A stretch of 61,393 nucleotides of DNA, counting the filler, from Dugesia japonica (lineage: Eukaryota): NCBI GenBank assembly GCA_001938525.1. It is 5 parts of 5 records of this genome, joined end to end, with 100 filler letters (N's around TTAATTAATTAA, not from the genome) between each part and the next. Parts side by side here need not be neighbours in the genome. Positions count along the whole stretch, not along the records: positions 37,776 to 52,145 come from MQRL01135452.1; 4 more parts are not named here. One strand, written 5' to 3'. The notes under the pieces were generated by a model. It had not been told where the DNA came from and searched no databases. It saw nothing but the letters and a program-made list of their open reading frames with translations. Of the stretch, positions 21,771-56,700 are shown piece by piece (position 1 is the stretch's first letter; each line of letters begins with the position of its first letter). Made by a program: the position numbers and the translations under genes.

Positions 21771-21783
21771 TAATTCAGTTTTG

Positions 21784-26853: not shown

Positions 26854-26945
26854 ATTTCATTGAAATAAAAGCTTTGATCAAAATATTTTTGTTTTTAATA
26901 TCACAAACTAAAATAATTTGATCGAAGCTTTTATTTTAATGAAAT
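26854..26945. repeat. Short inverted repeat (foldback or mini-MITE)
   Basis: ATTTCATTGAAATAAAAGCTTTGATCAAA ... TTTGATCGAAGCTTTTATTTTAATGAAAT. Confidence 0.65.
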
Positions 26946-27973: not shown

Positions 27974-28073
27974 NNNNNNNNNNNNNNNNNNNNNNNNNNN
28001 NNNNNNNNNNNNNNNNNTTAATTAATTAANNNNNNNNNNNNNNNNNNNNNNNNNNNNNNNNNNNNNNNNNNNN

Positions 28074-34500: not shown

Positions 34501-36930
34501 AGAGATTTTTAATTTATATCAGAATATCAGATTGAAGAAGCATACCAGAAGATGTTTACCAATAAAAATAATGAGATTGGATACCTGCTTGAAATTAATC
34601 TTGAAATACCTATCGAAATTCAATTACCTTTGGCTCTTGAACACAAATGTCCAACTGGATCAAAAGTTAAGAAGTTACTTAAATCTCATGAACCAAAACG
34701 ACATTATATCGTATATTGGCGATTATCGGAAATTGTTGTATAAATCTAGATATTAAATAATAAGATATTTAACAAGTTAAAATTATATTTCATAAAATAG
34801 CAATATTAAAACNNNNNNNNNNNNNNNNNNNNNNNNNNNNNNNNNNNNNNNNNNNNNNNNNNATAATTTGAATTTAGATATATTTAAATATTATCATAAT
34901 TTAAATATATCACAGAAACATATATTAATATCGAGGTTCATGTGACTGCATAACTTAGAATAATTCAGTTGAAACAAATGAAAATATTTGCCCATTATAT
35001 TAATACGAATTCTGCAAGAAGAGCAGAATCAAAATCCAAGTTTGAAAAGGATTTCTACAAACTATTAAACAATGTTCTATATTGCCAGACAGAAGAGAAT
35101 TTGAAGAATCGAATGGATCTCCGACTATGTGACAATGAAAAGAAATTTGTAACTTACGCCAGCAAAGTTGCATTTAAGAAAACAATGGATATCGCAAAAA
35201 GACTCAAAGCTGTTCAACTATTGTTGACTTTCTTCATTATAAGAAAAATGAATTTGTGACGAGTTTCTTTTAGTATGACCGATGGCTCATTGAGTATGTG
35301 TCTGGAACTAAATCAATAAAGAAGGGGAGCTGAGGTATTGGTCACTTTACAAAGCATTCCGCTAAATGATAGAATGAAGCAACAATCCAGAGCACTGTAG
35401 AGAAATTGAGATATTACAACTGGCTTCTGATCAAATAACTCAAGAGATTTGCTTTACTCCTTAAGCTTCGCCTACCCTTTCCTAGACGGAAGCGTTCAAT
35501 TAGAGTAATCAAATATGAATAAAAGCTTAGTTCGCTTATTTATGTTTATTGTTTGGTCTTGAATTATTTCTGGATTTTAGCCTGTAATTTTATTGATATT
35601 CAATAAAAGTTTGTTAAGTATTCAAACTATGGGTTAAGTCATCGGTACCCGTGAAAAGTTTTAAAAAGATAATGATAGCCATGAGATAATCTGGTAATTA
35701 CATCGATTAACTGTGAAATAAGTAGAAGCATATGTTTTAAGCGCCCAGCCAGTACAGTATAAAAGTCGGCGGAAAGAGTTTAGAGAGTCGGCCGAACAAT
35801 TCCATTGGCAAATGCGACTTTGGGAGAATCAATCAGAAACCTTTGTGGAGTGGTTGCAACCATCCCATGAATGTGAAGACCATCAAGTACCAAATATCAT
35901 AAAGCTGAGAGCATACATTCTTGCTGAACACCTCATTATGGATATAAGGATACAGCACGGAAAATGAACTAGTATTATATTGAAATTACATGCTGCTAAT
36001 ATAATTTGTTGCTTTGTCTTATCAATAAAATATTTTTGTAATGAAAACCTCTAAATAATCGGTTTATTTCTAGTGTACGGTAGGCATTTTTTCTCCGTCG
36101 TGATCCGATGTCATAGATTGTTGCGAGTACTACTGGTAAATCGATACCTTTACCAGCAACGGGTGAAGCGCTTAAAACTGATGTATCTACGAAAAATCGC
36201 CCTCCTAAATGCAATCAAACCTACTCGTAAATGACAGTTATTTATTGTCTCACGAGGCTAGATGGAACTCAAACATAAGACAAAGATAACTTTGTTGTCA
36301 AAGCATAGTAAATTGGATCAACAACTAATGAGAGTGAATAATGAGATGAAATAGACTAAGGAAAAAATATAGAAATGAAAACACGAATTAAAGAAATCCG
36401 AGCATACAGTTGAACTATGATTTTCAAGTCACCGGCTCTACTCCAGAAATTCAGATCAGGAACAGTGGAAATAACTTTGCTCGGGTTCCAATTTACCTTA
36501 AAATGCAAACTAAAATTAAGCTGCCTAGATAGAACTCCAACAATAATAATGAAAGTTACAAAAATATTTTTGAATTTTGTAATTCCTATTATTTAAATCA
36601 TTTTTTATATTTATTGTTTTCAAAAAACATTAAAAAATATTTGTAGAAACGTAAAGTGAGATTAATTTTAACAAATCTTTTAAAAATAAAAACTATCCAA
36701 ATCATTTTCTACTTTGCCAATTTAAATTTCTTAAGCTATTTATATTTAATTTTTTTAAACTTTAAATTAAATTAATTTCAGAAAACTCCAAACCTGGTAT
36801 TACAGGTTTTCTCGTGGCTTGGAAGAACAAGTGAAACGCGATTCAAGTAGTGATACTGAACTTATTCTTTACAAAGAAGATAATAAACTTATCCCTTATG
36901 AAGGACTATTAGAAGAGTATTTAGAAATGG
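28222..36930 (+). CDS. Partial host anoctamin/TMEM16 gene; exons 28222-28374 and 36782-36930
   Basis: FVGYPGNY...[34 protein letters not shown] joins in phase to KLQTWY...[12 protein letters not shown]; canonical AG/GT sites; ~8.4-kb intron filled with TEs. Confidence 0.92.
28398..28584. repeat. (TAA)n microsatellite spanning a gap
   Basis: Seen directly. Confidence 0.95.
30772..32280 (-). mobile_element. Truncated hAT transposon (3' half of transposase plus one terminus)
   Basis: [30 protein letters not shown] (hATC dimerisation domain); terminus CAAGGTTTTCAAC with TATTCGAATA subterminal palindromes. Confidence 0.8.
33200..34330 (-). pseudogene. Helitron PIF1 helicase remnant
   Basis: [63 protein letters not shown]. 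Confidence 0.88.
34550..35260 (+). pseudogene. Polinton PolB palm-region remnant (third element)
   Basis: [19 protein letters not shown]; [30 protein letters not shown] (motif B). Confidence 0.8.
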
Positions 36931-37775
36931 GTTAGAATATAATTAATTAATTAATTTAGTTCATAAATCTGTTAATGTTATTAAAAAACAGATCAAATTT
37001 CTTCATATAACAACTTCATTCGTTCAAAAGCATTTTGATCAATTTATTGTAAAACTTTTAAAAATTTTACATTTAAATATGATGAAAATAAGGCGAAAAT
37101 TTCTTTTAGTTACATGAAATTGAATATAATTGATCTGGTTGTAGTTAGTTAGTAATAATAGGTATTCTCATAACGACCATTAACGTGTAAAGCCTTGATA
37201 AAGATCTTTCTAGTTATAATACTATTCATATTACTATTCATCTCACTGGTAACCTTATAAATAGGGACGTGCTTTCCTGGCGTTAAGATATTATTGAAAT
37301 TAATAATAATAGTAATAACAATAATAGTAATAATTATAACATGGTTGTAATTTCAAGTGTTGTCTAAGACTTTTGTGTGGTGAAATATAATGTTAGTGTA
37401 ATGGATTATGCTTAATATCTTGGCCTAAATATTTTTTGTGTTGTTGAAGAATTTTTTTGGATGAAATATATTTTTAGTGGGATGGATTATAAGTTTAACT
37501 TGCTGGTTAGACTTTTTATGTGATGACTTAGAAATTTCATTATCTTCCACGAAATGTTTGAAAGTTATTGAAAACTTCTATGTTATGGATTATAATTTAT
37601 ATGTTGGCTTAAAATATTTACATGTAAGTGTTAATTTTACTGTGATGAATGAAATGCTTTGTGCGATGAACAATANNNNNNNNNNNNNNNNNNNNNNNNN
37701 NNNNNNNNNNNNNNNNNNNTTAATTAATTAANNNNNNNNNNNNNNNNNNNNNNNNNNNNNNNNNNNNNNNNNNNN

Positions 37776-37898
37776 AAAATGCGCATGGAGAATGAGATTT
37801 TCCAGCCAATTATTAAAGGTAAAAATAAGGTTTTTTTCGAGCAGCTTGCAAGAAAAAGATTGCGATTGGCAATGGAAAATGGATAATGGTAATGAAAA
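37776..37898 (+). repeat. Left terminal inverted repeat (outer end lost in the gap)
   Basis: Near-exact reverse complement of 51997-52121. Confidence 0.95.
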
Positions 37899-38101
37899 TT
37901 GCACTCCAAATCGATCATGATAAGGCAGAAATTTGAAGTTAAATGATAAAATCTTATTGAAAATCTTACTGAAAAAAATAAAAAAAAAGAGCAAAAAGTG
38001 GTCCAAATTTAACATGACTTGACAAAATTTAACACAACTAAATTATTTTTAACAGGACTTAACAAAGTTGATATTTTTTATCTTAAATTTTATCATAGTA
38101 A

Positions 38102-38693
38102 AATGACTGAAGAAAAAATAAATAGTATTGTTAATGATGATAATTTGAGTTCCCAAGAACAAGTTATTTTAAGAAAGTATCTTGAGATTTTATCAGATAA
38201 ACCAGCAGCTAAAGTTAAAGAATCATCTACTATAATTGGTGTTAATGTTTTAACATTGAAAAAAATTTTATATAAAAAAGGTTTTATTAAAAAAAAGCCG
38301 AAGGAAAAATGTATTACTATTAACCGATATAGATATGATAGTATTGATGATGTATTAATTCCTGATAAAGATGGTGTTTTTTACCAAAAAAATAATAAAT
38401 CACTTTTAGAATATAAACCAAAGAAGGAAAACATTACTCAAGAAGAAAAATTAAAAAATAAAACTACTAAAGTAAAAAGAAATATTAAGGAAGCCTTACA
38501 AAATAAAGTTCGATATCCAAATCTTGAATTCAAGTATTATAAAAATATGTTTCCTGTACAAGAAATAAAAGCTGGAGCTATTTATGATGAAGAAGAAGAT
38601 TATGTTAATGATGCTAATGATATAAATGATATAAATGATGGTAATGATGATGAAGATATAAAAGATTTACATAATGGTGTTCCAATACCTTAA
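38102..38693 (+). CDS. Hypothetical Lys-rich protein with acidic tail
   Basis: Open frame 38019-38693; probable start at AAAATG 38102. Confidence 0.65.
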
Positions 38694-38822
38694 AATGATG
38701 AACAAAGTTTACCTAAACCTTTTATTAAGAAAAAATGTAAAAAAATGAGATGTAATAGAAATCAAATAGATTTATCATCAAATGTTGGAGATGAGCCATC
38801 CTAATTTATTTGTATATAAAAA

Positions 38823-39212
38823 ATGACCGACTCTTTCATACAAACAATTAAACAAGATAAAATTTTTTGGAAAATAACAAAAGAAGAATTAATGAATACT
38901 GTTGATAAATTACTATTTTGTGAAACAAAAGATGAATTAATACTTTTGGATACTATTAAAAATTTAAATCTTTCTAATAGATTATATAAAGAAGCATATG
39001 AACGAAAATCAAATATTAAAAATATAAACTTTAATTATGAAGATGAAATGGAAAGTATTAAAGAACTTTCAAATTTAAAAATACAAAATAATAAAATCAA
39101 TTGTAATGAAAAGATTAAAAGAATTAAGGAAAATGAAAAGAATAGAATTAAAGAGGAAATTAGAATTAAAAAGAAAAGGATCTCCCAATTAATTGCTAAA
39201 AAAAATATTTAA
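38823..39212 (+). CDS. Hypothetical protein with basic coiled-coil C-terminus
   Basis: 129-aa ORF preceded by TATAAAAA. Confidence 0.65.
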   Translation: MTDSFIQTIKQDKIFWKITKEELMNTVDKLLFCETKDELILLDTIKNLNLSNRLYKEAYERKSNIKNINFNYEDEMESIKELSNLKIQNNKINCNEKIKRIKENEKNRIKEEIRIKKKRISQLIAKKNI

Positions 39213-39215
39213 TAA

Positions 39216-39479
39216 ATGATTGAAATAATATCTTCTGCAAGTAGTATACCAACTAATCAAAGTGAGGATACGAAAAGATTAATTAGTGGAAAAAATAAAT
39301 ATGATAATACTATTGATGAAATGAGTGATGAACTATTGCAATCATCTGATTGGTGGATGAAATTTTACAAATATCTATGTATTATTATAATTGTAATTTT
39401 TATAGTTTATATAATTTGTGATATATATTTTAATCATTACGCACAAATAGTTACTCGACTCAAAAAAATAATTAAATAA
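39216..39479 (+). CDS. Small single-pass membrane protein
   Basis: Hydrophobic run YLCIIIIVIFIVYIICDIYF; tightly packed between its neighbours. Confidence 0.7.
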   Translation: MIEIISSASSIPTNQSEDTKRLISGKNKYDNTIDEMSDELLQSSDWWMKFYKYLCIIIIVIFIVYIICDIYFNHYAQIVTRLKKIIK

Positions 39480-39480
39480 A

Positions 39481-40809
39481 ATGGACCTTGATTTCAATAT
39501 TAATTTTTCTCATCTACAAACTAAAAATGATTTATTAAAAATTTCCCCTACTTCGGGATCAATTAATAATTTAAATAATAATTGGGATATTATATTTCAA
39601 TCCATACAAAATACTAATCCTCTTGATATTGGAAATTCTAAATTATACTTTAAAATAAGTTTCAAAAATTCAGTTGCAACAACAACACTTGAAAATGGTT
39701 TCTTTCCAGCTTTATTTTCTCAAATAAGATTAAAAATAGGTTCGAGTAATATTGAATCAATTACTAATCCTGATGTCTCATCTACAATGTTTAATTTAAT
39801 TTTAATAGATAATTCTGCCGTTAAATCTTATAATGCTTATGGCTGGATTCCAAATAGTAAAGATGAGATCGAAAGCGGTAAAAATAAAAGTTTTATTAAA
39901 CGAAAAGAATTATATTCCAATGGCTATGAAGGATATTATCCCTTAAAAAACTTGTTTGGATTTTTAATGAATTATAATAGATTATTATTTAATACATTTA
40001 TTCAATTAGATTGTAATAGAGTTAAAGAAGTCAACAGTAAAATATTTCATGGAACAACTGAAGATAAAGTTGAAATCCAAATTGATACTTTAGTATTACA
40101 TATTCCAGAATGGAAATTATCACCAAAATTTGAATTGAATTATTTAGAAAGATTAGCAACTAATAAAAGTATTCAATGTTCATTTCTTGAAAGAGAAGCA
40201 GGTAATTGTTCAATAACAACAGGAACTAGTTTTTCAATTAAATTAGGCAATTTACCTTATCGACCTAGATTTGTAATTATTGGATTTAAAAATAAGGATC
40301 CTAGTTACAAGGAAAATAATAATTTATTTACATTAGGAATTACAGATAAATATTTAAAAAGTATTCATTTACAATTAAATAATATTTATTATCCAAATAC
40401 TAGAGTTGAATTTGATACTAATAATAATCAAGAAATGTTTCCATATCAAATGTTTTGTGACATGTGTAAATCATTCAATACTAATCCTCAATTAAGTATT
40501 AAAGATTGGTCAACTTTCTATCCAATATTTTGTTTCGATTGTTCTGCACAAGATGATAAATTAGATATTAATAATGTTGATGTTACTTGCCACTTAACTA
40601 AAGACTCTACTTTAACTGGAAATTTATATTGGTTAATATTACAAGAGAAACATGTCGAACTTAAAATCTCAAATGGTAAAGTAATGTTTGTAGAAAATAT
40701 TAAAGGAACAGATGTTAAAAAGATGGCTATCCAGCTAGCTGGCGACTCTAATATTGGTTTACCATTAAATATGATGATGAATGATGTAAATAAACAAGCT
40801 AAAAAATAA
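39481..40809 (+). CDS. Major capsid protein (double jelly-roll, hexon-like), intact
   Basis: 442 aa with LFSQIRLKIG..IE, PLKNLFGF, PRFVIIGF, LNNIYYP and PIFCFDCSAQ, typical of Polinton MCP. Confidence 0.88.
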   Translation: MDLDFNINFSHLQTKNDLLKISPTSGSINNLNNNWDIIFQSIQNTNPLDIGNSKLYFKISFKNSVATTTLENGFFPALFSQIRLKIGSSNIESITNPDVSSTMFNLILIDNSAVKSYNAYGWIPNSKDEIESGKNKSFIKRKELYSNGYEGYYPLKNLFGFLMNYNRLLFNTFIQLDCNRVKEVNSKIFHGTTEDKVEIQIDTLVLHIPEWKLSPKFELNYLERLATNKSIQCSFLEREAGNCSITTGTSFSIKLGNLPYRPRFVIIGFKNKDPSYKENNNLFTLGITDKYLKSIHLQLNNIYYPNTRVEFDTNNNQEMFPYQMFCDMCKSFNTNPQLSIKDWSTFYPIFCFDCSAQDDKLDINNVDVTCHLTKDSTLTGNLYWLILQEKHVELKISNGKVMFVENIKGTDVKKMAIQLAGDSNIGLPLNMMMNDVNKQAKK

Positions 40810-40818
40810 CTATAAAAA

Positions 40819-42167
40819 ATGTCTAAGAATTGGGAAAATATTCCTGGAAGCACTAAAAGAATTTATAGGAAAAAAATTTAAATACAGTTCCCCAGAAAGC
40901 TGGAGTTAACCGGAAAATAGGAAACGATGTTAAATACGGAAGTGATTTACAATCTTCAAAACTAACTTCAACATTAATGAAACCTTTTACCACTGAAAAA
41001 TATCCTGGAGAAAGACACTTATTTGGTCACAACTATACTGGTCCAGGAACAAGATTAGATTTAAGATTTGATGAAAATTTAAATCCTAAAGAAGGTGAAG
41101 AACCTAAAAATAAAGTTGATGCCAGTGCTTTATAACATGAAATTGCATACATTTCCGAAGATATAAGAGATAGACATTTGGCTGATGTTAATTTAATACA
41201 TGATTTAAATAATATTCAAAATCCAACAACTGCTGAAAAGATACAAATAACATTAGTTAAATTGGCTATGAAAGGTAAAATTATGGTTGGTTCTGGAGTT
41301 CAGGATACTAAAAAAGTAATTTCAGATGAATTATTTAAAGAGGAAATTAGAGCTACCGAATTACATAGAGATTAAAAGAAACCAAAGTTTTATAGGAAAG
41401 TTGTAATTTTAGATAAGGATGAAACATGGTCGGCAGATTTAATTTTTTTAACTTATGGAGCAATGGGTGAAAAATCAAAAAATGTTTTTTTAACTGTTAT
41501 AGATTTATTTACAAGATTTGCATTTGTTAAATTCTGTAGAAATAAAACTGGACCGGCAATTACTGAGACTTTTCAATTAATATTTAACAATTCAGGTAGA
41601 ATGCCAAATAATTTATGGGTAGATCATGGGAAAGAATTTTATAATAAAACATTCAAGAAATTTTGTTTAGATAATGATATTAACATATATTCAACTGATA
41701 ATGAAGGTAAAACTGTTTTTATAGAAAGATTTAATAGAACATTTAAAAATAAATTATTTAAACAATTCACTAAACAAGGACATCAAAAATGGACAAGGAA
41801 ATTAATTCAAGATATTGTTTATGATTATAATAATAATGTTCATTCTTCAATTAATACAACTCCAGTAAAAGCATCGGAAAATCCTAATATTATTAGAGAT
41901 TTAATTAATCAAGATAATTTTAAATATGCCAGTAAACTGGAAAAGCTAGGGAAACAAAAATTTGATATTGGAGACAGAGTTAGAATTGTAAGAATAAAGA
42001 AAAGATATGAAAAGGGGTATACAGCAAAATGGTCAGAGGAAATTTTTATTGTTAATAAAGTATATCACACTAAACCTTATAATTATGGATTGACTAGTTT
42101 AACAGGAGATAAAGTCACTGGGAAATTTTATGATAATGAGTTACAGAAAACTTTGTTATCCAGCTAG
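40819..42167 (+). pseudogene. PLA2-integrase fusion (parvovirus VP1u-type phospholipase A2 plus rve integrase)
   Basis: After a 5' frameshift (~40875) a single frame reads HNYTGPGT..VDASAL*HEIAY..MVGSG..ELHRD*KK..WSADL..LWVDHGKEF..IERFNRTFK..FDIGDRVRI; stops at 41133 and 41373; DDE triad intact. Confidence 0.88.
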
Positions 42168-42182
42168 CTTCAGTCCAACAAG

Positions 42183-43028
42183 TTGGAAACTGGGGAACAA
42201 GCTAAATTATTCCTAAAGAAAATGTATGAACAACCAATTTGGATAGATAATACTAGTATATTTAATCATGAAACTTTTCCATCACAATTTAGGTGCTTAA
42301 TTATTGGTTCATCTGGTTGTAGTAAAAATGTACTGTTACTTAGAATGTTACTTACTCCAGGATTTATAGATTATAATAATTTAATATTATTTTCAACAAC
42401 AATTAATCAATTCGAAATTCAATTAATATATCATGGATTTAATCAGGGACTTTCTAAGGAAGATTTATTGTTAATATTTACTAGAGACATGCAAAAGAAG
42501 ATTCGAGAATCTGGAACTAATGGTAATAAATTAACCCCACAAGAAATTATTTTTTAGTTTATCCAGAATAAATTTCATAAAGCTAATGATGATGATGATG
42601 AAGCTGGACAAATAGAAATGACAATTTCAAATAAAGCTTCAGAAATAATTCCATGTGATAAATTACCCTCCAACAAGAAAAACTTAATTATATTCGATGA
42701 TGTAGTAAATGAAAAGAATCAACAAATTCAAAAAAGTTATTTCACAAGAGGGAGACATAATAATTGCAATGTGATTTATATATCACAAACATATTATGAC
42801 TTGGATAAAAATTCAATTAGAAATAACAGTAACTGTTTTATATTTTTTAAATTAGGAAAAAGAGATATGGATAATGTATATCATGATCTTTTCAGTAACA
42901 TATTTAATAATAAAGAAGAATATACATTTGAAAGTAATCACCATTGGAAAACTAAATATAATTATTTTTATCTTGATAGAGAAAATGAAATATTGATGGA
43001 TAAATTGTTTGAGTCTCCTACCAGTTAA
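42183..43028 (+). pseudogene. FtsK/A32-like packaging ATPase with one in-frame TAG
   Basis: IIGSSGCSK (G>S in Walker A), LIIFDD, RGRHNN..YISQTY; ORFs 42183 and 42618 share a frame, with a stop at 42555. Confidence 0.93.
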
Positions 43029-43073
43029 CTCCAGTTGAACTGAGGCTAACCATTAAAAATATTATATAATAAA

Positions 43074-43619
43074 ATGTCTGAAACTAACATCAATAATACT
43101 AACATAACCGAACAAGGTTTAATTGAATTGATAAATAGTAACAAGTGTAGATCAATAAAAATAAATGGTAAAAATTATTGGATAGGGAAACAAGCTAAAA
43201 ATAAAATCCAGCAGAGACTTGAAAAAGAAGGAGGTATTATTCCTTTACTTGCTTTAATACCTGGAATAGGTGCAGCAGGAACTGCAGCTGCTGGTGTTGC
43301 AGGCGCAGCCGCTGGAATTGCAAAGGCAGTTACAAATGCACGTGAAGCATCTAATGAAAAAAAGAAAGGTGAATTATTGGATCAGCAGTTAATTGGACAA
43401 CTCCAGCAAGCTGGAAAAACTGTTTCTCCAGCTAATCCTGGAGAAGGTTTATATTTAAATCCTTATCAGGGTTCAGCTATTCATAAATATTTAAAATTAA
43501 TTGGTGAAGATGAATTTATAAAGTTTGCTGCTAAATCAAATAAATGGAAAAAAGGTTTACGTGTAGAAAAACATGGAGATGGTTTATATTTAAATCCTTG
43601 GCCACATAAGTCAACTTAA
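43074..43619 (+). CDS. Adenovirus pX-like virion protein
   Basis: KEGG-IIPLLALIPGIGAAG..AAGIAKAV amphipathic segment; two GxGLYLNP repeats. Confidence 0.7.
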   Translation: MSETNINNTNITEQGLIELINSNKCRSIKINGKNYWIGKQAKNKIQQRLEKEGGIIPLLALIPGIGAAGTAAAGVAGAAAGIAKAVTNAREASNEKKKGELLDQQLIGQLQQAGKTVSPANPGEGLYLNPYQGSAIHKYLKLIGEDEFIKFAAKSNKWKKGLRVEKHGDGLYLNPWPHKST

Positions 43620-43634
43620 TTTTTTTTATATAAA

Positions 43635-44721
43635 ATGGAAAATAATGATTGCATTGAAGCAAGAATAAAAATATTAAAACAACAAGTAGTTGGTAGAAAA
43701 AAATATAATAATTTAATTCTTGACCAGCTAGCTCCAGCAAGCTGGGGTCAAGTTAATTATTTTAATATGGATAATAAATTACTTTCTGGAATTAACTTGA
43801 ATAAATTAGATCTTAAATTAGACCCTAAATTAGATCCTAAATTAGATCTAAAATTAGATCCTAAAATAGATTCTAAAATAGATACTAAAATAGATTCTAA
43901 AATAGATTCTAAAATAGATTCTAAAATAGATTCTAAAATAGATTCTAAAATAGATACTAAAATAGATACTAAAATAGATACTAAATTAGATTCTCAGGAT
44001 GTTAAACCAGCTAAGCCTAAGAAAGTTGCACGGAAAGAACCATTTCAAGTTAAAATAAAACTTTCTACTAAAAATAAAATAATGGATCGATTAATCCCTC
44101 AATTTTCAGGTGAATCTTTTGATCATTTTACAATTGATAAAACTGATATTTATTTAATAAAAGTTAATGATGTTAAAATGTTTCATGTTCCTGATTTTGA
44201 AGAAACTGGAGGAAAAGAATATATTCCATTTAGTAATGAAACTTTAAATTTAATGTTTGGACATGGAAGTAGTGATGAAGAATCTGTAAAAAGTTACTTA
44301 AATGATTTTGGTTTAAAATTTGATAGAAGAAACACATATTAGAAATTGTGATGAGATACAACCCACGAAACCTCAACCAACTGAAATAAAAAGTCTAGAA
44401 AGTGTTTATGATCCTGGAATTCCAAAAACAAAACTTCCTAACAAGGAAGATTTTAAACATAAGCCAGATCCATTAAATACTAAAGAAAAAGTATATACTG
44501 GAAATTCTATTCCAGTTAACTGGCCTCACCAGCTAGCTCCAGATTTCTGGGGACTTAAATTATTTGAAGATTTAACTAGAATAATTTCAGGTATAAAAGC
44601 GGGGCATGATAATTTAAATGTTGAATTAAAAACTGTACTTGATAAATTATTAAAATTAAAAATGATTACAAAAGTAAAATATAATAAATATCTTAAAAAA
44701 TATCTAAAAAAAATATCTTAA
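43635..44721 (+). pseudogene. Conserved Polinton protein (KAGHDN C-terminal motif), probably one gene split by a frameshift near 44320
   Basis: Overlapping ORFs 43635-44342 and 44320-44721; the homologous parts lie in one frame in element B. Confidence 0.7.
43803..43994 (+). repeat. Coding 12-bp tandem repeat, 16 x K(L/I)D(L/P/S/T)
   Basis: AAA(T/A)TAGAT(T/C/A)CT-type units. Confidence 0.95.
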
Positions 44722-44803
44722 AAAATATTTAAAAAAATATCTTAAAAAAAATATCTATCTCAAATTTAAGGTAATATAAATAACCTCACTTCGTTCGGTT
44801 TTA

Positions 44804-45544
44804 ATGTCACATCAATTTCAATTCATTGGAAGTGAAGATAAATTAGAATTAAATATTTCTCCAAGGATAGAATTAGAAGATGAATGGGAAGTTGGTTTAA
44901 TTTGGTTTTCTACTTCAAATATGATGATTAATATTTATGGAGATGGGAATGGTAAATTAGCTAATAATAAATATAAAATTAATAATATTGAAAAAACCTT
45001 ATCACCAGGAGCTTATGAAATTGATCAAATAGCTAGTAAATTAAAACTAGATAAAATAAATTTAACTTGGGATCTTTCAACAACTAAAGGAATGATTAGT
45101 TTATTTGTTCCTCCCAGCAAGGATAAAACTCCAGCTAATCAGGAAGTTGTTCAGCCTATCCAACAAGTTGGAAAACTATCGTTTGATGGAAATTCATTCT
45201 TTCATAAAATGTTAAAATTTAATCCTGGTGAATATTTAATTCAGGTTAAAGAAAATATTACTAAAATAAATATTTATGATATTTCAACAATTAATATAAT
45301 ATGTAATCTTGCTCAAGGAAATTATTTAGGAAATCGTGAAAGTAATTTACTTCATACTTTACCTATGGGAACTGTTCCTTATGGCTATAGAATAACTGAA
45401 AGACCTCCAAATCCAATATATTCAGAATTAACTGTAAGATTTATAGATAGAATTAAAATAAATATTGTCGATGATAATTTTAACACTATAGATTTCGATG
45501 GAGAAAAAATTAGTATTTTATTACATGTTAGGAAAACAAAATAA
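44804..45544 (+). CDS. Minor capsid protein (penton), intact
   Basis: PRIEL..WEVGL, PGAYEI, INIICNL, PYGYRITERPPNPIY, IVDDNFNTIDFDGE..LHVRK. Confidence 0.88.
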   Translation: MSHQFQFIGSEDKLELNISPRIELEDEWEVGLIWFSTSNMMINIYGDGNGKLANNKYKINNIEKTLSPGAYEIDQIASKLKLDKINLTWDLSTTKGMISLFVPPSKDKTPANQEVVQPIQQVGKLSFDGNSFFHKMLKFNPGEYLIQVKENITKINIYDISTINIICNLAQGNYLGNRESNLLHTLPMGTVPYGYRITERPPNPIYSELTVRFIDRIKINIVDDNFNTIDFDGEKISILLHVRKTK

Positions 45545-45558
45545 TTTTTATAATAAAA

Positions 45559-46062
45559 ATGACTGATGTTCAACAACAAGTTGGTGATAGAGATTGGAAT
45601 ATATTAGATTTTTTAAAAACATTTGGAATATCAACAATGACTAATTTTGATTTATTGTTAATAGCTGATTTCTTAAAGATGGATATAAAAGTTGTAATGA
45701 GTAATGAGTTTCCTACTCAGTTACCTGAGAGAAATTCATCCTAGATAATTAATTATGAAACATCAAAAGAAAAAGAAACTCACTGGGTTGCATTTTATTT
45801 TAATCCAGTGAATAAAAAGGGTTATTATTTTGATTCTTATGGTTTACCTCCAATAGATTGTATTCAAGACTTGAGTTTTGATATATTTTATGATGATGAA
45901 CAAGTCCAGCCTTGGGGAACAAGAATATGTGGAATTTTATGTATTTACTTTTTGTATAAAATTAATAAAGATCCTGATAGCTTGGAAAACCAGCTTCCAG
46001 TTAACTGGGCTGGAATAATCCAAGAGCTAAAGTCAACTTTTTCTCCATTATTAAATGGCTAA
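45559..46062 (+). pseudogene. Adenain-like cysteine protease with one in-frame TAG
   Basis: THWVAF, YFDSYG, QVQ..ICGILC; stop at 45742. Confidence 0.92.
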
Positions 46063-46378
46063 CTGGATTATGAATAATTTAGGTCAATCTTTACAGTTGG
46101 TGGGTGATACTAAATTATTAGAAATAGCTAGTCAAACAATTGAAGCAAAAATAAAAATATATTCACGTGAAGAAGAAATTAAAAATATAAAGTATAATGA
46201 TAAAAAATATGTTGATGAAAAAATTAAAAACCAACTAGCTGGGGTTGATGATAATTTTAAAACATTAAGAGAAAAAATTAATAAGCAACAAGTTACAATT
46301 GATACAATATTAGAAAGAAATGAAATTCATTTAAGTGAAAGTAAAAAACAATTTATAAAAATAAAACAAAGATGTTAA
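46055..46378 (+). CDS. Hypothetical coiled-coil protein (possibly one gene with 46372-46929)
   Basis: ORF overlaps both neighbours. Confidence 0.55.
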   Translation: MANWIMNNLGQSLQLVGDTKLLEIASQTIEAKIKIYSREEEIKNIKYNDKKYVDEKIKNQLAGVDDNFKTLREKINKQQVTIDTILERNEIHLSESKKQFIKIKQRC

Positions 46379-46929
46379 ATGACTTGGAAGTAGTTAATAT
46401 TCTAATACAGAATAATTTATTTAAGAATAAAAAATTGCATAGTAAAGAATTAAATCAGTTAACTGGAGATTTGACTAAAGAATTATACCAGTTAACTGGA
46501 GATTTGAGAAAGCAAGTTAACAACTTAACAAGTGTTTGTGGAAAAGATAAAATGAACAAGTTACAAAATCAAGTAGATAAATTAATACATGATTTTAATT
46601 TTCGTGTTCAATCAGAAAATGATCCTTTACCTAAATTAAAAACAAGGTTTGAGGGAATAAAACCAGTATTATTTCAAAGAGATGCTGTTGAAAAAGCAAT
46701 TAAAGAATTGGAAAAAGAAAGACAAGAAAATAAACTTTATTCAAAAGATAAATTAAAATTTGTTATTAAAACTATTGATAATTATTTTCCCTATTATCCT
46801 AGTTTGATAGAAAAAGGAAATGTTGTTTTTAGTTTAACAACAAAAGTACTTATAAATAATTTACCATGTATTAGTGTGTGTAAATTTAAAAACTTGGTTA
46901 TTGATGGAAAAGGTAAAATTATAGGATAA
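46372..46929 (+). CDS. Hypothetical coiled-coil protein
   Basis: 185-aa ORF with an 11-aa duplication KEL(N/Y)QLTGDL. Confidence 0.6.
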   Translation: MLNDLEVVNILIQNNLFKNKKLHSKELNQLTGDLTKELYQLTGDLRKQVNNLTSVCGKDKMNKLQNQVDKLIHDFNFRVQSENDPLPKLKTRFEGIKPVLFQRDAVEKAIKELEKERQENKLYSKDKLKFVIKTIDNYFPYYPSLIEKGNVVFSLTTKVLINNLPCISVCKFKNLVIDGKGKIIG

Positions 46930-46933
46930 ACAT

Positions 46934-47284
46934 GTGGAAAATATAGATATATACAATCTCTTGGATAAATTAGAATTAAAATTTGAAAGAATTGATTTTC
47001 AAATTTATGAATTAAATTTTGAAATTGAATGTTTTAATCCATTTAAAACATTAATATTCGTTGAAGTTTTAATTATTATTGAATTAGTTAAAGATCCTAA
47101 AGTAGTGTATAAAACTTTTAAATTTAAAAATGATGCGTATAAAAAAAATAAATATTTAATTAATTCAAAGGAAATTCTAGAGAAAATCCAGGTTGGGGTT
47201 AATTGGAAACCTTTTTCAATACACATGCCAAAAGATATTTTTTTAAAAGAATTGAAAATTATAAATTCTAGAGAATCTGAATAA
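46934..47284 (+). CDS. Hypothetical protein
   Basis: 116-aa ORF (GTG start in the track), co-oriented and tightly packed. Confidence 0.5.
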   Translation: MENIDIYNLLDKLELKFERIDFQIYELNFEIECFNPFKTLIFVEVLIIIELVKDPKVVYKTFKFKNDAYKKNKYLINSKEILEKIQVGVNWKPFSIHMPKDIFLKELKIINSRESE

Positions 47285-47317
47285 GTTCCATTAAATGGAA
47301 ATAATTTTTTTATAAAA

Positions 47318-47985
47318 ATGTCTATCGAAAATATTTATCCCAAGTTAGATTTAGATGATGAGCTAACTACAAGTAGTACGAAGACATAGAAGATTTAAAA
47401 AATAAATTAAATAAAACAAGGATATTAGATTTTGAAAGTGACTTATTATGGATCGATGAAAAATTAAAGCATTATAATAAATTATTAAAAAGATGGAATC
47501 GATTTGATAATGGAGTGAGATTTACAGATGTTGGAATATCTACAATTATAGGAATAGCTTCAGGATCAATTATTTTATTAACAACTCTAAGTTTTGCAGT
47601 TCCTGTTTTAGTCACAGGTATAATAACAGGAATACCAATAATTTATTCCTTGTCTCATGGAACTTTAAGATTAACAGTAATTAAAAAATGATGTGTAAAA
47701 TATCTAGCAAAAATAAAATTATTGGAAGAAACTAAAAGTAAATTATTTGCATATCATGTAAAGGCTTTGGAGGATAATGTTTTAACTAATGTAGAAATAA
47801 AATTTTCAAAGGATTTAATAAATAATTTAAAGAATCCATTTAATAAATTTTCCAGCTCGCTGGATGTTGATAAATTCGATACTCACACTCCAGCTAGTTC
47901 AAATGTTCAAAATTTTAACTTGGATGAATTAAAAAAACTGTTGAATAAAACAATCCAACAGATTTCCATGAAGACGAAAGTTTAA
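47318..47985 (+). pseudogene. Membrane protein with Gly-rich hydrophobic hairpin, disrupted
   Basis: MSIENIYPKL, a frameshift, then VGISTIIGIASGSIILLTTLSFAVPVLVTGIITGIPII, TGA at 47689, then SKLF..KALED. Confidence 0.7.
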
Positions 47986-48103
47986 ATTGTTCCAGCTTAG
48001 CTGGCCTTTAGAAAATATCTATAAGTAAATATCTATAAAAGTATATAACATAAAAAGTTTAAAAAAAAAATAATCACTTAACTCAAATTACTTCTATATA
48101 AAA

Positions 48104-51100
48104 ATGTCCAACATTACTTTTGAAAATTATCTTGAACAAGATTCAGCTCCTTATTATTGTCCATACTGTGAAAGGAGATTTAAAACTTTATACATTTGGG
48201 GAAGTCATTTAAATGGTGCTCCACATAAAAAGAAATTTTTAAAATAGAAAATAAAGATATATGGCTTTGTAAACATTGTGGTGTTGAATGTGGAAATTCA
48301 TTTAATTATAAAAGACATATTGAAAGAATGGCTAGAATTAGAGCAATAAAGGAAGGCCAGGGTGGAGATGAGATAACAGAAACATTTAAAGAAGAAATGA
48401 AAATTTTATATTCTAATTATTTATCTGAGCCCAGTTGGACAATTAAAACATGCTTAGATGCATGGGTAAAATTGAAAATGGAATTACCTGAAGGAGAAAT
48501 TTCACCTGATTATGTTGCAGTAGATGGTGAAACTATTAGTGAGTTTGAAGAACGAATTAATTTTAATGAATTAGATAAATATAAAACCACTGTAAAAAAT
48601 ATTTTAAATTTATATTTAAATAGATTCGATAAATGTATGTTCTGGATGGTTTTTAATGTTAAATTCACTAAAGATTATCACCCTGTAAACTCAGGGTCTG
48701 TTGTTCACACTTCAGTGGATATTAGAAAATTTAAAATCCTAGCTAGAGGAATAACTATAGAATCACAAATTCCAGAAGTTATTTCAGACTGTTTTCAAAA
48801 GGTATTAGAAGAAATGTATGATAATGAAGGAGATGGTTCAGGTTGGTGTATTAAAGAAATAGTTTCATTTACTCTTAATATGAGTAAGTATGAAACTTTA
48901 GCAGGACAAGGATATGAACAACTTCCACTAGAATGGAATTGTGTTCGTGGAATTGTTAATATTAAAAATCCAGAAGATGATTATAATTGTTTTGATTATT
49001 GTCTTCAGGCACACTTGAACCAAAACCTTACAGATGAAATTAATATGTATAAACCTGCTGGATTTAATTTTAAATATAATATGGATACAACTAAAGGTAT
49101 GAATGTAAATGATATAAATAAATTTTGTAAATTAAACGGTTGGAAAATAAATTTATTTGAGGTTAAGAATAGTAATTCCAATCGATGTAAAATTCAAAAA
49201 ATAATTTACATGCACAATAATACATCTCCTAAAAGTACAGATAGGGAATGTAATTTATTAATATATAAAGGACATTACATTTTAATTAAGGATTTAAGAA
49301 AAATATATTGTAAAAATAATAATTATAATGAGATATGCTTAAATTGTATGATTTCATTAAGTAATTTAAAAGCCGTACATAATCATCAAAAATCATGTTT
49401 AGAAAACCCCTCATCACAAATCTTATTTTATCCAGAGGATAATTTTAAATTTAATAATTATCAGATGAAGCATTACATTCCATTTACAATTTACTATGAT
49501 ATTGAAACTTATAATAAAACTAATTCCATTACCCCAAAATCAAAATTATCATGCTTAAGCATTTGTCTTTATATTAAAAGTGAATATGATAATTTACTCC
49601 CATCAAGTTTAAAAACATTTCCCAAGGAAACTTGTTTATCAGATTTTATTAATTATTTGAAGAAAATTAATGATCATATTAATTTAATAATTAATACCCA
49701 ATTAAAAGAATTAGACAAAGCCACAGTTCCATTAATAGAAGAACATGGAATAAAGGAATGTTACTACTGTAAAATTAAATTTAATAATAACGATTTTAAT
49801 AAGGATTTTATTATAACTTCATATAATGAATTCACAGCATGTTTCAGAGGATATTCACATAAATCCTGTAATAAAAAATCATTATTAAAAACAAATTTCT
49901 TTATTCCAGTAATTGCACATAATGGTTCTCATTTTGATAATCATTTTGTTTTCAAGGAAATGTGCAAATTATATCCTAAATCATTAGATAAACTAATCCC
50001 AAATATAATGATGATTATGTAGCTTTTAATTTTGGCAAATTAAGATTTATAGATTCATTAAATCTTTGCCCTGGAACATCAATAGCTAAAATGGGTGAGA
50101 CATTAAGTAAAATTAATAAACACCCAATCTTGGATTCACAGGAGTTATGTCCAAGAAAAAATTATTTTCCATATTCACTTGCTCAGGGTAATTCCCATAG
50201 TGAAGTACTGGATAAATTTAAACAATGGAATCCTAATAAAAAAGATTTCTTCAATCAATTAAATCAACAGGAAATGTCAGAAAGTGAATATAAACAATTC
50301 CTATTAGACTTTGAAGATTTCCGGGTTGAGGACAATCCATTGTTTAAATATAATCTTCATTACATGAAATTGGATGTTTTGATCCTTGCCGATTTCATGG
50401 AGAATCTTAGGAAATTATCCTTAAGAGAAAATGAGATAGATCCATTTTATTGTTACAGTGCTCCAGGACTAACTTGGCAAACTGGCATGAAAAAAACTGG
50501 GATTAATTTAAAATATCCAAGAAAAATAGATTATGACATGCATTTGATGATCCAGCAAGGAATTAGAGGAGGCCAATACTCTGTTTTAGGAAACAGACAC
50601 ATTTTAGCTGGAAAAGAAAACACTATAAAATATCTCGATGAGAATAGTTTATATTCTTTTTGTATGACATTAAAATTACCCTGGGGTTTAATGTCATGGG
50701 GAGAACCAAATTATATAAAAACAAATAATGAATATGAAATAAATTCTGATGGGGAGAAAATATTTACTGATTATATTTACAAAGTGGATTTAAAATATCC
50801 AGATAAAATAAAAGAAAAATCAAAATATTATCCCTTTGCTTTAGAAAAGAAAGCAATAACATATGAACAATTATCCTCCTATCAAAAGAACTTACTTGAT
50901 AAAGCTGGTAAGAAACAAAGTAAGTTTGAAAAATTAATCATGGACCAGGAAGATAAAATAGAATATGTCTGTTTAGGAAACAATGTTAGATTTTTACTTG
51001 GAGCAGGGAATGGGACTTATTAAAGTCCACAGTAAAATAACTGTTCCAACAAAGGAATGGTTGAAGCCCTACATTGAATCAAATATTAAAAAGAGAAATG

Positions 51101-51894
51101 ATTCAAAATTAATTAAAGATGCATTTGGAGATGCATTTTACAAATTATTAAATAATGCATTCTTCGGAAAAACTATGGAGAATGTATTTCATCGAGAAAA
51201 CATTGGGTTGGCAAACACAAATAAAAAATTTTTAACAATGCTTGCTGATGTAAATTTCAAAGAGGCAATTTACATAAATAAAAATGTGGCACTAATTAAA
51301 AGACATAAAAATAATGTCAAGTTTTTAAAGTTCCCATTTATAGGGTTCTTTGTTTTAGAGTATGCTAAAATCACAATGTACAAATTCGTTTATAATGATT
51401 TGGAAAAACATTGTTCTGGTCATTATAAATTACATTATACAGATACTGATTCTCTAGTTTTGGAATTCATTCACCCAGGACAAACTTGGGAGGAATTTAA
51501 ACCTAGAGTGGAACATTTATTTCAAGATAAGTTGGGACAAATGAAAGATGAGTTTCCAAATCATCTAATCACAGAATTTTTCTTTATTAAATCAAAATCT
51601 TATTGCATGATTAAAGAAGATTTATTACAAAATCCTGAGCATGCTGCACAACTTCACATGGCTCACAAGGGATTAAAATATAGTAATAAATTAACTTCTG
51701 ATCAATACAAATCAGTCTTGTATGGTGATAAAACTATATATGGAACTAATTATTCCATACAATCAAAGTTGCATAACGTAACTTTTAATAAACAAATTAA
51801 AATAGGATTGACTCCATTTGATGACAAAACATTCATTTGTTCAGATGGAATAACAACTCTTCCATATGGATATCCTAATATTTATTCACAGTAA
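48104..51894 (+). pseudogene. polB: Protein-primed family B DNA polymerase, three frameshifts (~48240, ~50005, ~50985)
   Basis: Exo motifs YDIET, AHNGSHFD, RFIDS; DVLILAD; GIRGG; YLDENSLY; KLLNNAFFGKTMEN; YTDTDS; N-terminal zinc fingers. Confidence 0.96.
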
Positions 51895-51996
51895 CAGAGA
51901 TTAGTTTCTATATTAAAATATTAAAATAATAGTTAGGGCAACCTTTTTAATTTATCGTTGCCATCCTGATTTTTCAGCTAGCTGGCCAACTTACAT

Positions 51997-52145
51997 TTTT
52001 CATTACCATTATCCATTTTCCATTGCCAATCGCAATCTCTTTCTTGCAAGCTGCTCGAAAAAAAACCTTATTTTTTACCTTTAATAATTGGCTGGAAAAT
52101 CTCATTCTCCATGCGCATTTTTCATGAATCATGCGCATTTTTTTA
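51997..52145 (-). repeat. Right terminal inverted repeat
   Basis: Reverse complement of 37776-37898, followed by a duplicated CATGCGCATTTTT unit running into the gap. Confidence 0.95.
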
Positions 52146-52809
52146 NNNNNNNNNNNNNNNNNNNNNNNNNNNNNNNNNNNNNNNNNNNNTTAATTAATTA
52201 ANNNNNNNNNNNNNNNNNNNNNNNNNNNNNNNNNNNNNNNNNNNNTCTTGACGTTTTCTTTTTTTCTTAATAATACAAAACTATCCAAAAATTGAATTTC
52301 AATCAAGGCGTGTAATCCAGCTTCAAGTATATTCTTCAACTAATGTCGATAGAGTAATATCTCATTATTTGAAATCTCTTGAAAAGCGTCCATGAACACA
52401 TCGAGATTGTGAAAACTCTTCAGATTATCTGCTTTGTTGGCTTTGCATTCGCTTAGGAAATCAATATAATTCAAGCTTACGTAATTATTCACAGTATTCT
52501 ATTTTAGAAAGGAAAGAATTTTCGGAATTTCGGATTTAACAATTTTTTCTTCAATCTCTTCATTGTCTCGAACACAAATATCAATATTTTTAAACATTTC
52601 TTCTTGTTTCAAAGATAACGGATTTATTTTGTCCATATTTTAAAAATAATGATTTTTTTCGAAAATCATGAATTTATATAATTGTTGGTGTGTAAGCGTG
52701 ATTGTATGTAAGAATANNNNNNNNNNNNNNNNNNNNNNNNNNNNNNNNNNNNNNNNNNNNNNNNNNNNNNNNNNNNNNNNNNTACTATATGCAATTTAAC
52801 TAAAATCAT

Positions 52810-53715: not shown

Positions 53716-56700
53716 CTACTCTTCAAAATGATCTTGATTCTTGTTTCTTGTTTCAACTTTCACTAAGACCTCATCACCAATCTCGAATCGTCTTTTAGTC
53801 AATATCTCTTTATCTTGTTCTTTGTGCTCTCTTTGAGAATTTGGTTTGCACCATTTTTCTCTGCTTATTCTCTTCCCAAATACGACTTCACGAGGGATTC
53901 TCCCGATGGTTTTCTGTTTTGTAGCATTCAAAGTAAATTCTATCTTCGGCAATTCATCCGCCTAATCTGAGGTTTTCCTTTCTTTACGTGTCACATTTAT
54001 AATATCCCGCATAGTTCTAAACTGTCTCTCCATTTTCCCTTTGTGTTATGATGATATGGACTCAACAACATGAGAGTAATTCAACTTTCATTGATTTACA
54101 CTCAAACGCTTTTCCATAATCAACTCTAAATTCTCTCGTACACCCGAACTTTAAACTCCACTTCTCCAATTTTGCTTTCCGTGTGGTATTTTCATCTTGT
54201 CTTCCCATTGCTATCAAAGATACATACTTACTGCAATGATCTATTATACCGAGAAAATATCTTTTTCGACCTCTTGTCTCCTGCAGTGGTCCACACATAA
54301 CTCAAAAATGTCGGCTGGCTGAGTCTTTTCGTTTCTTCCTTCGTTTTGTGTTGTCAACACTATAGCTTTCTGGCATGTTATACAACCTCTTGTACTCCAC
54401 AAATGTCTTGCTTTCTATTTATGATTCATATACGCTGGCATTGTTTCTGATCCAGCAAGACACAGATGGCGTATCCTCATTACAACCTCTTCTAATTTAT
54501 CATCAATTATCCATGTTCTTTCATCATTTTCTCCAAAATAGCGTAGTTTCTCTTGAATATCTACTTAATTTAACATCCTTGTTTTTAATTTTCACTTTTT
54601 GGGATCTTTATGTGACATAATACATTCTGTACATGTATTGCATTTACTCGTTGAAAACCTATTCGCATTTGTTTGAAGTGATCCTTTTCTATATTCCGAT
54701 TTAATATCTAAACTGCTCAAAAAATAATTCCAAATTTGAAACTGTGATGTGATCGGTTTCTTCATAGTTAGACTTATGGTCTGTTTTAAGGATAAATTTC
54801 TTCCCGTATAAGCAATGTGGGAAATGAATACAAAATTAGTAAATTGAAGTAAAAAGCAGTAAAAGTACTTTCGTGTAGTACAATATTCTTTCTTATGACT
54901 CGTCATTGCGTGTGACCCATATGCAATTACTCTTCCTTGTTCATTGTTGTCCCTTTAAAATAGTACTGCATCAATCGTATCGAAACTCGCATCTATCTCC
55001 AAAACAAATTCTCTATTTATATCTTGAAAACATAATATTGGAGACATCATAAGTTCTTCTTTCATTCCATTAAAAACTTCTTATTCATTCGCCTATACAA
55101 TCCATTTGTTACTTGGTCGACTACACAGTTGTTCCAGCAATCTACCTTTTTTCGAATAATTTTTAATAAATTTGCGATAGTAATTGAAAATTCCCAAAAC
55201 GCCTCTCATCTTCTGAACACATTTTAATTTGCCTAAATTCTCGATTTCTTTCTATTTTAGAATGAATCTTTTGTGTCACCTTCTTTACTGATAACGTGTC
55301 CCAGAAATTTGATCTCGTTTCATAGGAATTGAAATTACTATGGATTAACTCTTAGACCAGCATTATAAATTTTTGCCAATACTTTATTGACTATTTAATA
55401 GTGTTGCTACTTTGTTTTAGTAAATATGATAATATCATCTAAATAATCATCACCATATTCATGATACCATTATCATATAGATTCTTGATGACCTCTTCAA
55501 TTTTTTCCTCTAGAGTCATTGGTTGGCGATACAATTTTTTGTTAATTGTACCTCCTTTAGTGATTATTTGATGCTTTATTAAGTGTGTGCATTCAACGTC
55601 CCATTTTCCCTCCATAAATGCATCCTCATTATTCTAAATAATCACAGTCAATCTATGATCTTTGTTAATTTCTAGAATATCTATTGCATGTCTCAATCGT
55701 TTGTCCGTCTGTATTTGCCTTCTAAATTGTGACTCGATGTTGCAAACAAATTGTTCTCGTTGATTATTGGTGTCTATCCTGCACTTTCTTTGCAGATGAT
55801 ACGAAACAAATATTCTAAAATTCCACTAAACCAATTAGATTTGGTATTAGTTTCTCTACTATTATAAATGTTACTTCCTTGCACACCTCTGCAATTACAA
55901 CTTCCACACAAATCTTTTAAATTGTCAAATTTTAATGTTCTGTTTCTTTTCAATTGTTCCTAACTCTTTTGCTATGTTAACTTTTGTATCATTGAAATTT
56001 CCTCTTTTTAAGAATCTGTAAACCTTTTCTCCAACTTTACTCATCTCATCCAATTTCTTGGCCTTCTGAGAATAATCAAACAGTATTTCGTTTAATGAAT
56101 GGTTACGACCAACGTCTCTACTGGTGGAGCTCTGTCTTTTGGGTATTCTCTTGTCGATTTTTTTTTCTATTATGCTTCCAGAAAATGTCTTGTCATATTC
56201 ATAATCATCTTCTTCTCGAATGGCATGGATTGGTTTGGTCCAACTCCAATCTTTTGTTTGTTGTACGCTTTTAAAATTGTATCTTCTTTCTTTTAGTCTT
56301 GGTTTGTTAATGTTCAAATAATCTTCTTCCGCTCTGTGACTCGGTGTTTTACATCTACAGCATACAATTTCTGTGCACATGCTTCTGATGTGACCAATCT
56401 TACCACACCCAAAACATTTTGGTGGTTTCTTGTTTGGAAAATTTCTACTTAAATGTTCTTTCTTGTGGCAAGTCCAACATTTCACATGAAAACTTTTCAG
56501 ATACCATTTTTGTGTGCCCATAACTATGGCATGTCCAACATTCTGGTTCTATTCTTTTCGTAACTCTCTCGATATTTGTCTTATGTCTTCAGTTCGTTCT
56601 CCGCGTATTACAACAGCGTAACTCTTTATTAAGTCAGTAGATTTTCGTCTTTCTCTTCTTTCAACTAGTGATAGTTTTTCTTTTATATCTTCTATTTTCT

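Follow-up and report, generated by a model that had tools for sequence, protein, structure and literature searches.

Two decayed Dugesia japonica Polintons point to a widespread PLA2-integrase fusion gene with candidate protease sites on either side of the PLA2

The window analyzed here is a stretch of 61,393 nucleotides, AT-rich at ~25% GC, from the Dugesia japonica assembly GCA_001938525.1. Four identical spacers of the form N44-12nt-N44 (17670-17769, 27974-28073, 37676-37775 and 52146-52245) interrupt it, and the window is thus a concatenation of contigs. Two of these carry the decayed Polintons that are the subject of this report, elements A and B (Table 1). Genomic linkage of A and B is rejected, as they lie on separate contigs with artificial joins, and long inverted repeats between contigs of the window are artefacts of the same joining. 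A third Polinton remnant and other mobile-element remains lie elsewhere in the window.

Table 1. Features of the window discussed in the text (arrows mark predicted scissile bonds)
Feature	Position	Strand	Basis or remark
Element A, decayed Polinton/Maverick	37776-52145	+	Gene set; own contig between two spacers
A left terminal inverted repeat	37776-37901		blastn against right repeat; cut by contig end
A right terminal inverted repeat	51994-52121		blastn against left repeat
A major capsid protein	39481-40809	+	PF21738 E 4.4e-18, above cutoff; open frame
A precursor gene, probable original start	40819-40881	+	ATG now out of the PLA2's frame
A upstream (leader/PLA2) site, incomplete GG motif	40935-40946	+	Relatives carry GG here
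A parvovirus-type PLA2 module	40944-41300	+	PF08398; Ca-binding loop 41034-41048
A PLA2/integrase junction motif MVGSG (x-x-G-x-G)	41283-41297	+	Predicted cut Gx↓G
A rve integrase	41358-42167	+	PF00665; ELH 41358-41366; TAA 41373-41375; natural end TAG 42165-42167
A A32-like packaging ATPase	42168-43028	+	PF04665, above cutoff; one internal stop (42555)
A pX-like core protein	43074-43619	+	PF05829 E 0.012, below cutoff
A probable penton	44804-45544	+	Size, position, homolog in B
A adenain-type (C5) cysteine protease	45559-46062	+	PF00770 E 3.5e-7, above cutoff; one internal stop (45742)
A protein-primed family B polymerase	48229-51894	+	Atlas 0.98; three overlapping frames
Contig with element B	17770-27973	-	Decayed further than A
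B finger, PLA2, junction and linker to TAA 24041-24039	24042-24734	-	One frame
B rest of linker and integrase	22818-24038	-	ELH 23999-23991
Third Polinton remnant	35032-35217	+	37% identity to A's polymerase over 62 aa; another contig
Mobile-element remains	5466-6332 (-), 17167-17508 (+), 54595-54954 (-), 55928-56548 (-)		BED finger, reverse transcriptase, weak RNase H, weak zinc-knuckle

Several features by which Polintons are recognized are found in element A: terminal inverted repeats (128 nt, 96.9% by blastn), an rve integrase (PF00665, broken by a stop), a polymerase, a double jelly-roll capsid protein, a packaging ATPase and a C5 protease. The ends of the element coincide with contig joins. 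The polymerase matches a DNA polymerase cluster in the Atlas, 20% of whose members carry PF03175, and has no match of value in Pfam, PDB or PHROGs; GxG occurs in it nine times. At the start of its frame (48229-48400, +) a C2H2-like finger is followed by GG↓D, resembling the finger-GG↓D-PLA2 arrangement of the fusion family described below, and is a possible removable packaging tag. The pX-like core protein carries four GG/GxG motifs, and the frame at 44804-45544, which has no family match in searches that included Pfam, is presumably the penton. A 12-nt tandem repeat (43778-44029, +) codes for a four-residue repeat in an uncharacterized ORF. Decay is evident throughout: single stops break the ATPase, the protease and one uncharacterized ORF, the polymerase is spread over three frames, and the breaks include TAG and TGA codons and frame changes, while the genes that remain open terminate in TAA.

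Between the capsid and ATPase genes lies a frame (40869-42164) in which both a parvovirus-type PLA2 (PF08398, E 1.9e-7) and an rve integrase (PF00665, E 7.7e-9) are matched above cutoff, bearing out an earlier note on this DNA that had placed the two in one frame. The same note held that the TAA separating them falls inside a conserved integrase block, and the codon does stand directly after ELH, within the integrase N-terminal block. Its account of the breaks was incomplete, having overlooked a second TAA (41133-41135) within the PLA2 and a 5' frameshift, the latter deduced from the position of the ATG at 40819 in another frame. That frame stops at 40879-40881 and encodes a segment without cysteines, whose first residues appear, by eye, to resemble those of an intact relative, P0003. 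Because the second TAA lies inside the PLA2 and the catalytic dyad is altered, the PLA2 of A is dead. The integrase catalytic motifs are taken to be those at 41427-41438, 41616-41630 and 41724-41738, and the first Met after the fusion-breaking stop lies past the first of them.

Element B retains the gene order of A except for an inverted ATPase (21999-22793, +); its capsid gene is internally deleted, and its contig holds no match to A's polymerase. Near the end of the contig an F-box ORF (18088-18420, -; PF00646, E 1.7e-9) could be either a host gene or element cargo. As previously proposed, the PLA2 of B reads in frame into the start of the integrase, with finger, PLA2 (PF08398, E 8.1e-10), junction motif LVRGG (24170-24156), stop and ELH all in one frame, and no Met between stop and ELH. 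The His-Asp dyad is intact (24317-24303), also as proposed; the Ca-binding loop is of a variant found in 3 of 70 relatives. What we take to be a C2H2-like finger (24713-24666, -) is present as claimed; it is not special to B, since CxxC occurs in 14 of 26 long-leader relatives. The reading frame of B's integrase changes near 23900-23870, and the gene extends across an N gap (23372-23421), around which a 300-nt duplication of 98% identity (23031-23330 and 23422-23721) is probably an assembly artefact. Neither the A nor the B integrase has a chromodomain match in Pfam.

The PLA2 regions of A and B share 77% DNA identity over 341-348 nt and 71% protein identity. The two elements are thus kin and cannot serve as independent witnesses of a fusion, and a shared frame in two kindred copies is weak evidence alone, being expected by chance one time in three. 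The matter is settled by intact relatives. One, P0003, is a protein of 463 aa in which finger, PLA2 and integrase follow one another without a stop; over the PLA2 region of A it is 76% identical. It was recovered in a search with the PLA2 of A, as was a second uninterrupted PLA2-integrase, P0005. The alignments of the two proteins continue past the stops of A and B, which lie at different positions, upholding the proposal that an ancestral fusion decayed independently in the two elements.

A word search with A's PLA2 as single query gave just 5 matches among 43 candidates, so profile searches were needed. By profile search and inspection, the order PLA2-then-integrase is present in 23 proteins among the 150 best-scoring of 12,235 representatives (50% clustering), a share inflated because fusions score twice; the remaining 127 lack it, and most related integrases are unfused. 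PF08398 is matched in 22 of the 23, above its cutoff in 19. A profile built from 18 fusions gave 1,413 matches, and both PF08398 and PF00665 are found in 119 of the 120 best, a set enriched for fusions by construction; some of these 120 lie on megabase contigs or represent clusters of up to 365 members, and none bears an informative name. The 143 fusion proteins gathered, none with an X or a stop, fall into 70 clusters at 70% identity and 25 at 50%, so that the database search proposed in the earlier note finds uninterrupted fusions to be common. In the ESM Atlas, clusters with both domains have 184, 111 and 72 members (scores <0.9); the largest is automatically named PLA2/integrase, and the recorded taxa of the clusters are mostly Preplasmiviricota.

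Of the 59 linkers from junction motif to ELH that could be scored (11 of 70 rows could not), 45 contain no Met, and some are just 4-10 residues long. Given also where the next Met falls after the stops of A and B, a separate integrase start is unlikely in their lineage. That the PLA2-integrase fusion is real is, in our judgment, virtually certain.

Fused and separate forms of the PLA2 both exist. Of the best 120 matches to a PLA2-centered profile, in which part of the integrase columns remained, 53 include a complete integrase, 9 match it partially, 10 extend no further than ELH, and 48 show no integrase; 14 of these 48 are Lottia gene models, and others may be truncated. In three Lottia gigantea models (P0301, P0310 and P0319), broken or spliced, the PLA2 continues past the junction as far as the N-terminal motif of the integrase, placing the fusion in a named mollusc genome. 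Some fused relatives carry a chromodomain. DUF5679 (PF18930; P0175, P0204, P0231 and relatives) often serves as a cysteine-rich leader of the fusion, with GG behind it, and this position suggests a role for an uncharacterized domain. In P0078 the order is reversed, integrase-chromodomain-GxG-PLA2, and the protein ends two residues into the junction motif. In three further proteins (P0013, P0099 and P0111) a protease is fused to the integrase and GxG precedes the latter, and P0111 has an N-terminal finger as well; PF00770 is below cutoff in P0013 and P0099 and absent in P0111, whose protease is presumed from its catalytic motifs.

In a FastTree phylogeny the integrase of A falls in a clade of seven rows, all fused, with support of 99. 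Fused integrases are otherwise scattered over the tree in both N-terminal subtypes, requiring 12 changes of state, at least 6 of them forced, and a single clade of all fused integrases is rejected on a 42-row tree (p-AU 1.7e-28). Because the 25 unfused rows of that tree were hand-picked once the earlier phylogeny was in view, and might include broken fusions, repeated gain and repeated loss are indistinguishable.

Structural models are consistent with two folded domains. The model of P0003 has a mean pLDDT of 89, with the upstream GG in a disordered stretch (residues 29-45); the junction GxG comes after the final helix of the PLA2, where confidence falls to 66, P4-P3 being helical. The matches listed by fold searches with the full-length model were all of integrase type, the foamy virus intasome at E 1.9e-15, and the PLA2 of B was therefore folded alone, giving a PLA2-like fold at pLDDT 84.6 in which helix 96-118 runs through the junction motif. 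Densovirus VP1 domains dominate its fold search, the best at E 1.3e-3 to 2.3e-3, with no viral match reaching E 0.001; the top PDB match is a rice PLA2 (Z 7.1, rmsd 3.9, 89 aligned), a Z within the tool's common range. PDB sequence searches gave weak matches to foamy virus integrase (E 0.017) and to AAV capsids (E 0.8-1.9). The models suggest that the junction motif sits at an accessible domain boundary, as in mavirus-type substrates, and that in B a helix may reach into it. The His-Asp dyad, altered in A, is intact in B, as it is in 69 of 70 relatives, and the PLA2 domain of the family is predicted to be an active phospholipase.

A conserved glycine motif stands at the junction of the two domains. 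In 64 of the 70 clusters it is present (GxG in 60, GG in 4), while shuffles average 6.6 and never exceed 15, a comparison that overstates significance because the 70 rows are kin and not independent samples. In the integrase body the motif occurs in at most 1 of 70 rows per 10-residue bin. A second GG/GxG lies ahead of the PLA2 in 24 of 26 leaders of at least 45 residues, in all 14 leaders with CxxC, and in 14 of 33 short-leader forms, several others of which start with Met at that spot (11 of the 70 rows were left unscored). Furthermore, GxG occurs within 30 aa before ELH in all three protease-integrase fusions versus 5 of 103 other integrases, the background being ~6% and ELH positions being set by a profile anchor in 135 of 153 rows. 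The predicted cut at the junction falls a median of 12 aa before ELH (n=59), and unfused ELH-type integrases begin a median of 14 aa before it (n=65). At the other side, seven stand-alone PLA2s (P0318, P0321, P0326, P0334, P0363, P0365 and P0366) end 1-5 residues from the junction Gly, as judged on the sequences themselves, the automatic count often having taken an earlier Gly, and with truncation at contig ends a possibility. The second site, the shared motif in protease-integrase fusions and the matching integrase starts are apparently new here. In many relatives, a single open frame holds both folds and two positionally fixed glycine motifs.

The earlier note had read the linkers of A and B as matches to the adenovirus protease consensus (M/I/L)xGx↓G, whose other form is (M/I/L)xGG↓x. 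The glycine part of that reading holds, with G at P2 and G at P1 or P1' at both junctions and in 64 of 70 relatives; the P4 part does not. M, I or L occupies P4 in 6 of 64 junction motifs and K or R in 42, with P3 hydrophobic, and even when N and Q are admitted, following the available text of PMC6048507, the total is 9 of 64. The upstream site is similar, with K, R or H at P4 in 24 of 41 and M, I or L in 3 of 41. The match of A to the adenovirus consensus is a minority state in its family, and to judge from these residues the adenain-type protease of Polintons seems to prefer a basic P4.

Taken together, A and B are best viewed as dead copies of a widespread Polinton precursor gene, their stops being the result of decay. 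The precursor would consist of an optional zinc-finger or basic leader, GG, a PLA2 of ~115-120 aa, GxG, an rve integrase and an optional chromodomain. From its place between the capsid and ATPase genes it would be made late, with the virion proteins, and packed into the particle, where the adenain-type protease of the element may cut it at GG↓x and Gx↓G. The freed PLA2 could then help the particle cross the endosomal membrane, the freed integrase would travel with the genome, and a single gene would supply both in equal amounts. Cleavage, packaging and PLA2-aided escape are what we infer from sequence patterns, and the proposal as a whole, with dual delivery, is probable, if well short of secure. 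Several observations weigh against cleavage: B has no upstream GG before its PLA2, the junction motif is missing from the scored window in 6 of 70 rows, and GxG also occurs at other sites, such as the PLA2 Ca loop and the nine places in A's polymerase.

One alternative is that the fusion remains uncut, the glycines capping the last PLA2 helix and starting a flexible linker, with the PLA2 acting as both entry enzyme and packaging tether in one chain. Part of the junction motif may indeed be a helix cap, because a weak alignment (E 0.89) pairs one junction Gly with a Gly of AAV VP1u and stand-alone PLA2s retain the first junction Gly with nothing behind it to release; the helix extending into the motif in the B model and the mostly unmet adenovirus P4 rule (6 of 64) point the same way. 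Left unexplained by an uncut chain are the upstream GG in a disordered stretch, the GxG of protease-integrase fusions that have no PLA2, the GxG ahead of the PLA2 in the reversed P0078, and the basic P4 at both sites (42 of 64 and 24 of 41), and we consider it unlikely.

Less likely again is cleavage at the same glycines by another diglycine-reading protease, either the vOTU of the polymerase or a host SUMO/ubiquitin deconjugase. The junction of B ends in RGG, resembling a ubiquitin tail, and P4 is unlike that of adenain. In addition, Polinton polymerases carry a vOTU protease predicted to be active (PMC11161782, in the text available). Against such an enzyme, Gx↓G, the commoner form at the junction (60 of 64), is a demonstrated specificity of the mavirus capsid protease according to the available text of PMC6048507, and A's pX-like core protein, of the expected substrate class, carries the same motifs.

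It is very improbable that PLA2 and integrase are separate neighbors sharing a frame by chance, the fused database proteins being products of decay or gene calling. Stand-alone forms do exist, and 48 of the best 120 PLA2 matches are without integrase sequence. Chance does not account for 143 open fusions down to <50% identity, for some linkers of just 4-10 aa, for the lack of Met in 45 of 59, for clusters of up to 365 members among the best 120 fusion-profile matches, or for stops that differ in position between A and B, that of A lying within the integrase N-terminal block; for the A/B lineage, P0003 and P0005 refute it. Programmed read-through of the TAA codons, or a host code in which TAA is sense, merits almost no credence and is rejected, for although both fusion-breaking stops and the stop in A's PLA2 are TAA in DNA of ~25% GC, their positions are not common to A and B, A has TAG, TGA and frame-changing breaks elsewhere and open genes that end in TAA, and the relatives have no stop.

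The fusion bears on annotation, as many Polinton genes annotated as integrase carry an overlooked PLA2. If the preferred reading, a precursor cut by the element's own protease, is correct, it has further consequences. In the available text of the literature searched, the Polinton protease is assumed to act in virion maturation and no substrate is named; the precursor gives exact candidate peptides, and the predicted basic-P4 specificity would set this enzyme apart from adenain. How an integrase reaches a newly infected nucleus is a further problem to which the precursor offers a possible route. It can also be argued that fusion-bearing Polintons make particles, because there is otherwise little reason for an integrase to be linked to an entry enzyme. 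A broader scheme, which we put forward as possible rather than probable, is a modular, protease-punctuated precursor system for non-capsid virion cargo in Polintons, in which the integrase has time and again been fused with, or separated from, a PLA2 or the protease itself, zinc-finger leaders are removable genome-binding packaging tags, and the protease has a basic-P4 specificity. Such a system, if true, would amount to a DNA-virus counterpart of the retroviral Pol strategy and supply the first defined substrates of the Polinton protease.

No published description of the fusion was found in the literature searched. Neither a PLA2-integrase fusion nor a Polinton protease site is described in the available text of PMC8502044, 10.64898/2026.06.19.733378, PMC3671162, PMC5803895, 10.1101/2025.02.07.637071, 10.1101/2023.08.22.554363 and PMC6048507, nor in that of PMC12220804, 10.64898/2026.10.13.758929, PMC11161782, PMC8097293, PMC11131425, PMC4028283, 10.1101/2024.03.25.586562 and PMC11296320. 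The precursor thus appears to have gone undiscussed even though automatic annotation names its architecture.

One close known system is PLA2X, a PLA2 like that of parvovirus VP1, located in the virion module of animal Polintons, proposed to be membrane-active and, as the earlier note had stated, published as a separate gene (Starrett et al. 2021, PMC8502044, in the text available). Adintoviruses are animal-tropic and have an OTU-bearing PolB and a chromodomain integrase. In them the PLA2 of PLA2X is followed by a C-terminal pX-like domain; in the fusion that position belongs to the integrase, and the pX-like match in A is on an ORF separate from that of the integrase, so that the PLA2 protein of A lacks the domain. 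A protein of the PLA2X layout, P0007, has GxG and GG motifs between its modules. The words 'cleav' and 'fused' are absent from the main text of PMC8502044, and PLA2X and Integrase stand as separate labels in its Fig. S2, maps that could still show a fused gene. A PLA2 domain is also encoded by the Sf Maverick CAP (Geisler 2018, PMC5803895) and by entomopoxvirus-associated PLVs (PMC11296320), on ORFs apart from INT and with no fusion or processing mentioned in the available text of either.

For the motif itself, mavirus is a better precedent than the adenain consensus. Its related C5 protease cleaves both GG↓X and GX↓G sites, its integrase MV02 is packaged, and within virions the lipase-like MV13 occurs split near GK↓G, while two GxG stay uncut (Born et al. 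2018, PMC6048507, available text). In mavirus, however, the integrase and the lipase come from separate genes, the latter being an alpha/beta hydrolase rather than a PLA2, and the main substrate is the capsid C-terminus (PMC6048507, same text). The capsid protein of A has no GG/GxG-type motif of that kind. Another multidomain Polinton protein, TP-vOTU-pPolB, is predicted to process itself (Krupovic et al. 2024, PMC11161782); it joins a polymerase to a vOTU protease, and the available text of that paper makes no mention of a phospholipase or PLA2. In parvoviruses PLA2 mediates endosomal escape (PMC8502044, available text).

The PLA2 of the family described here has the PF08398 match, Ca loop and His-Asp dyad of the parvovirus VP1 unique region. 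The parvovirus PLA2 is the N-terminus of a capsid protein, and parvoviruses are not known to encode a protease. In retroviruses and LTR retrotransposons the integrase is freed from the packaged Pol precursor by the element's own protease; the integrase fold is the same, but here the virus is a DNA virus, the protease a cysteine rather than an aspartic enzyme, and the partner of the integrase an entry enzyme rather than a reverse transcriptase. Because its parts, the mavirus processing logic and the two-domain annotation were already known, the PLA2-integrase precursor counts as a variant rather than a novel type of system.
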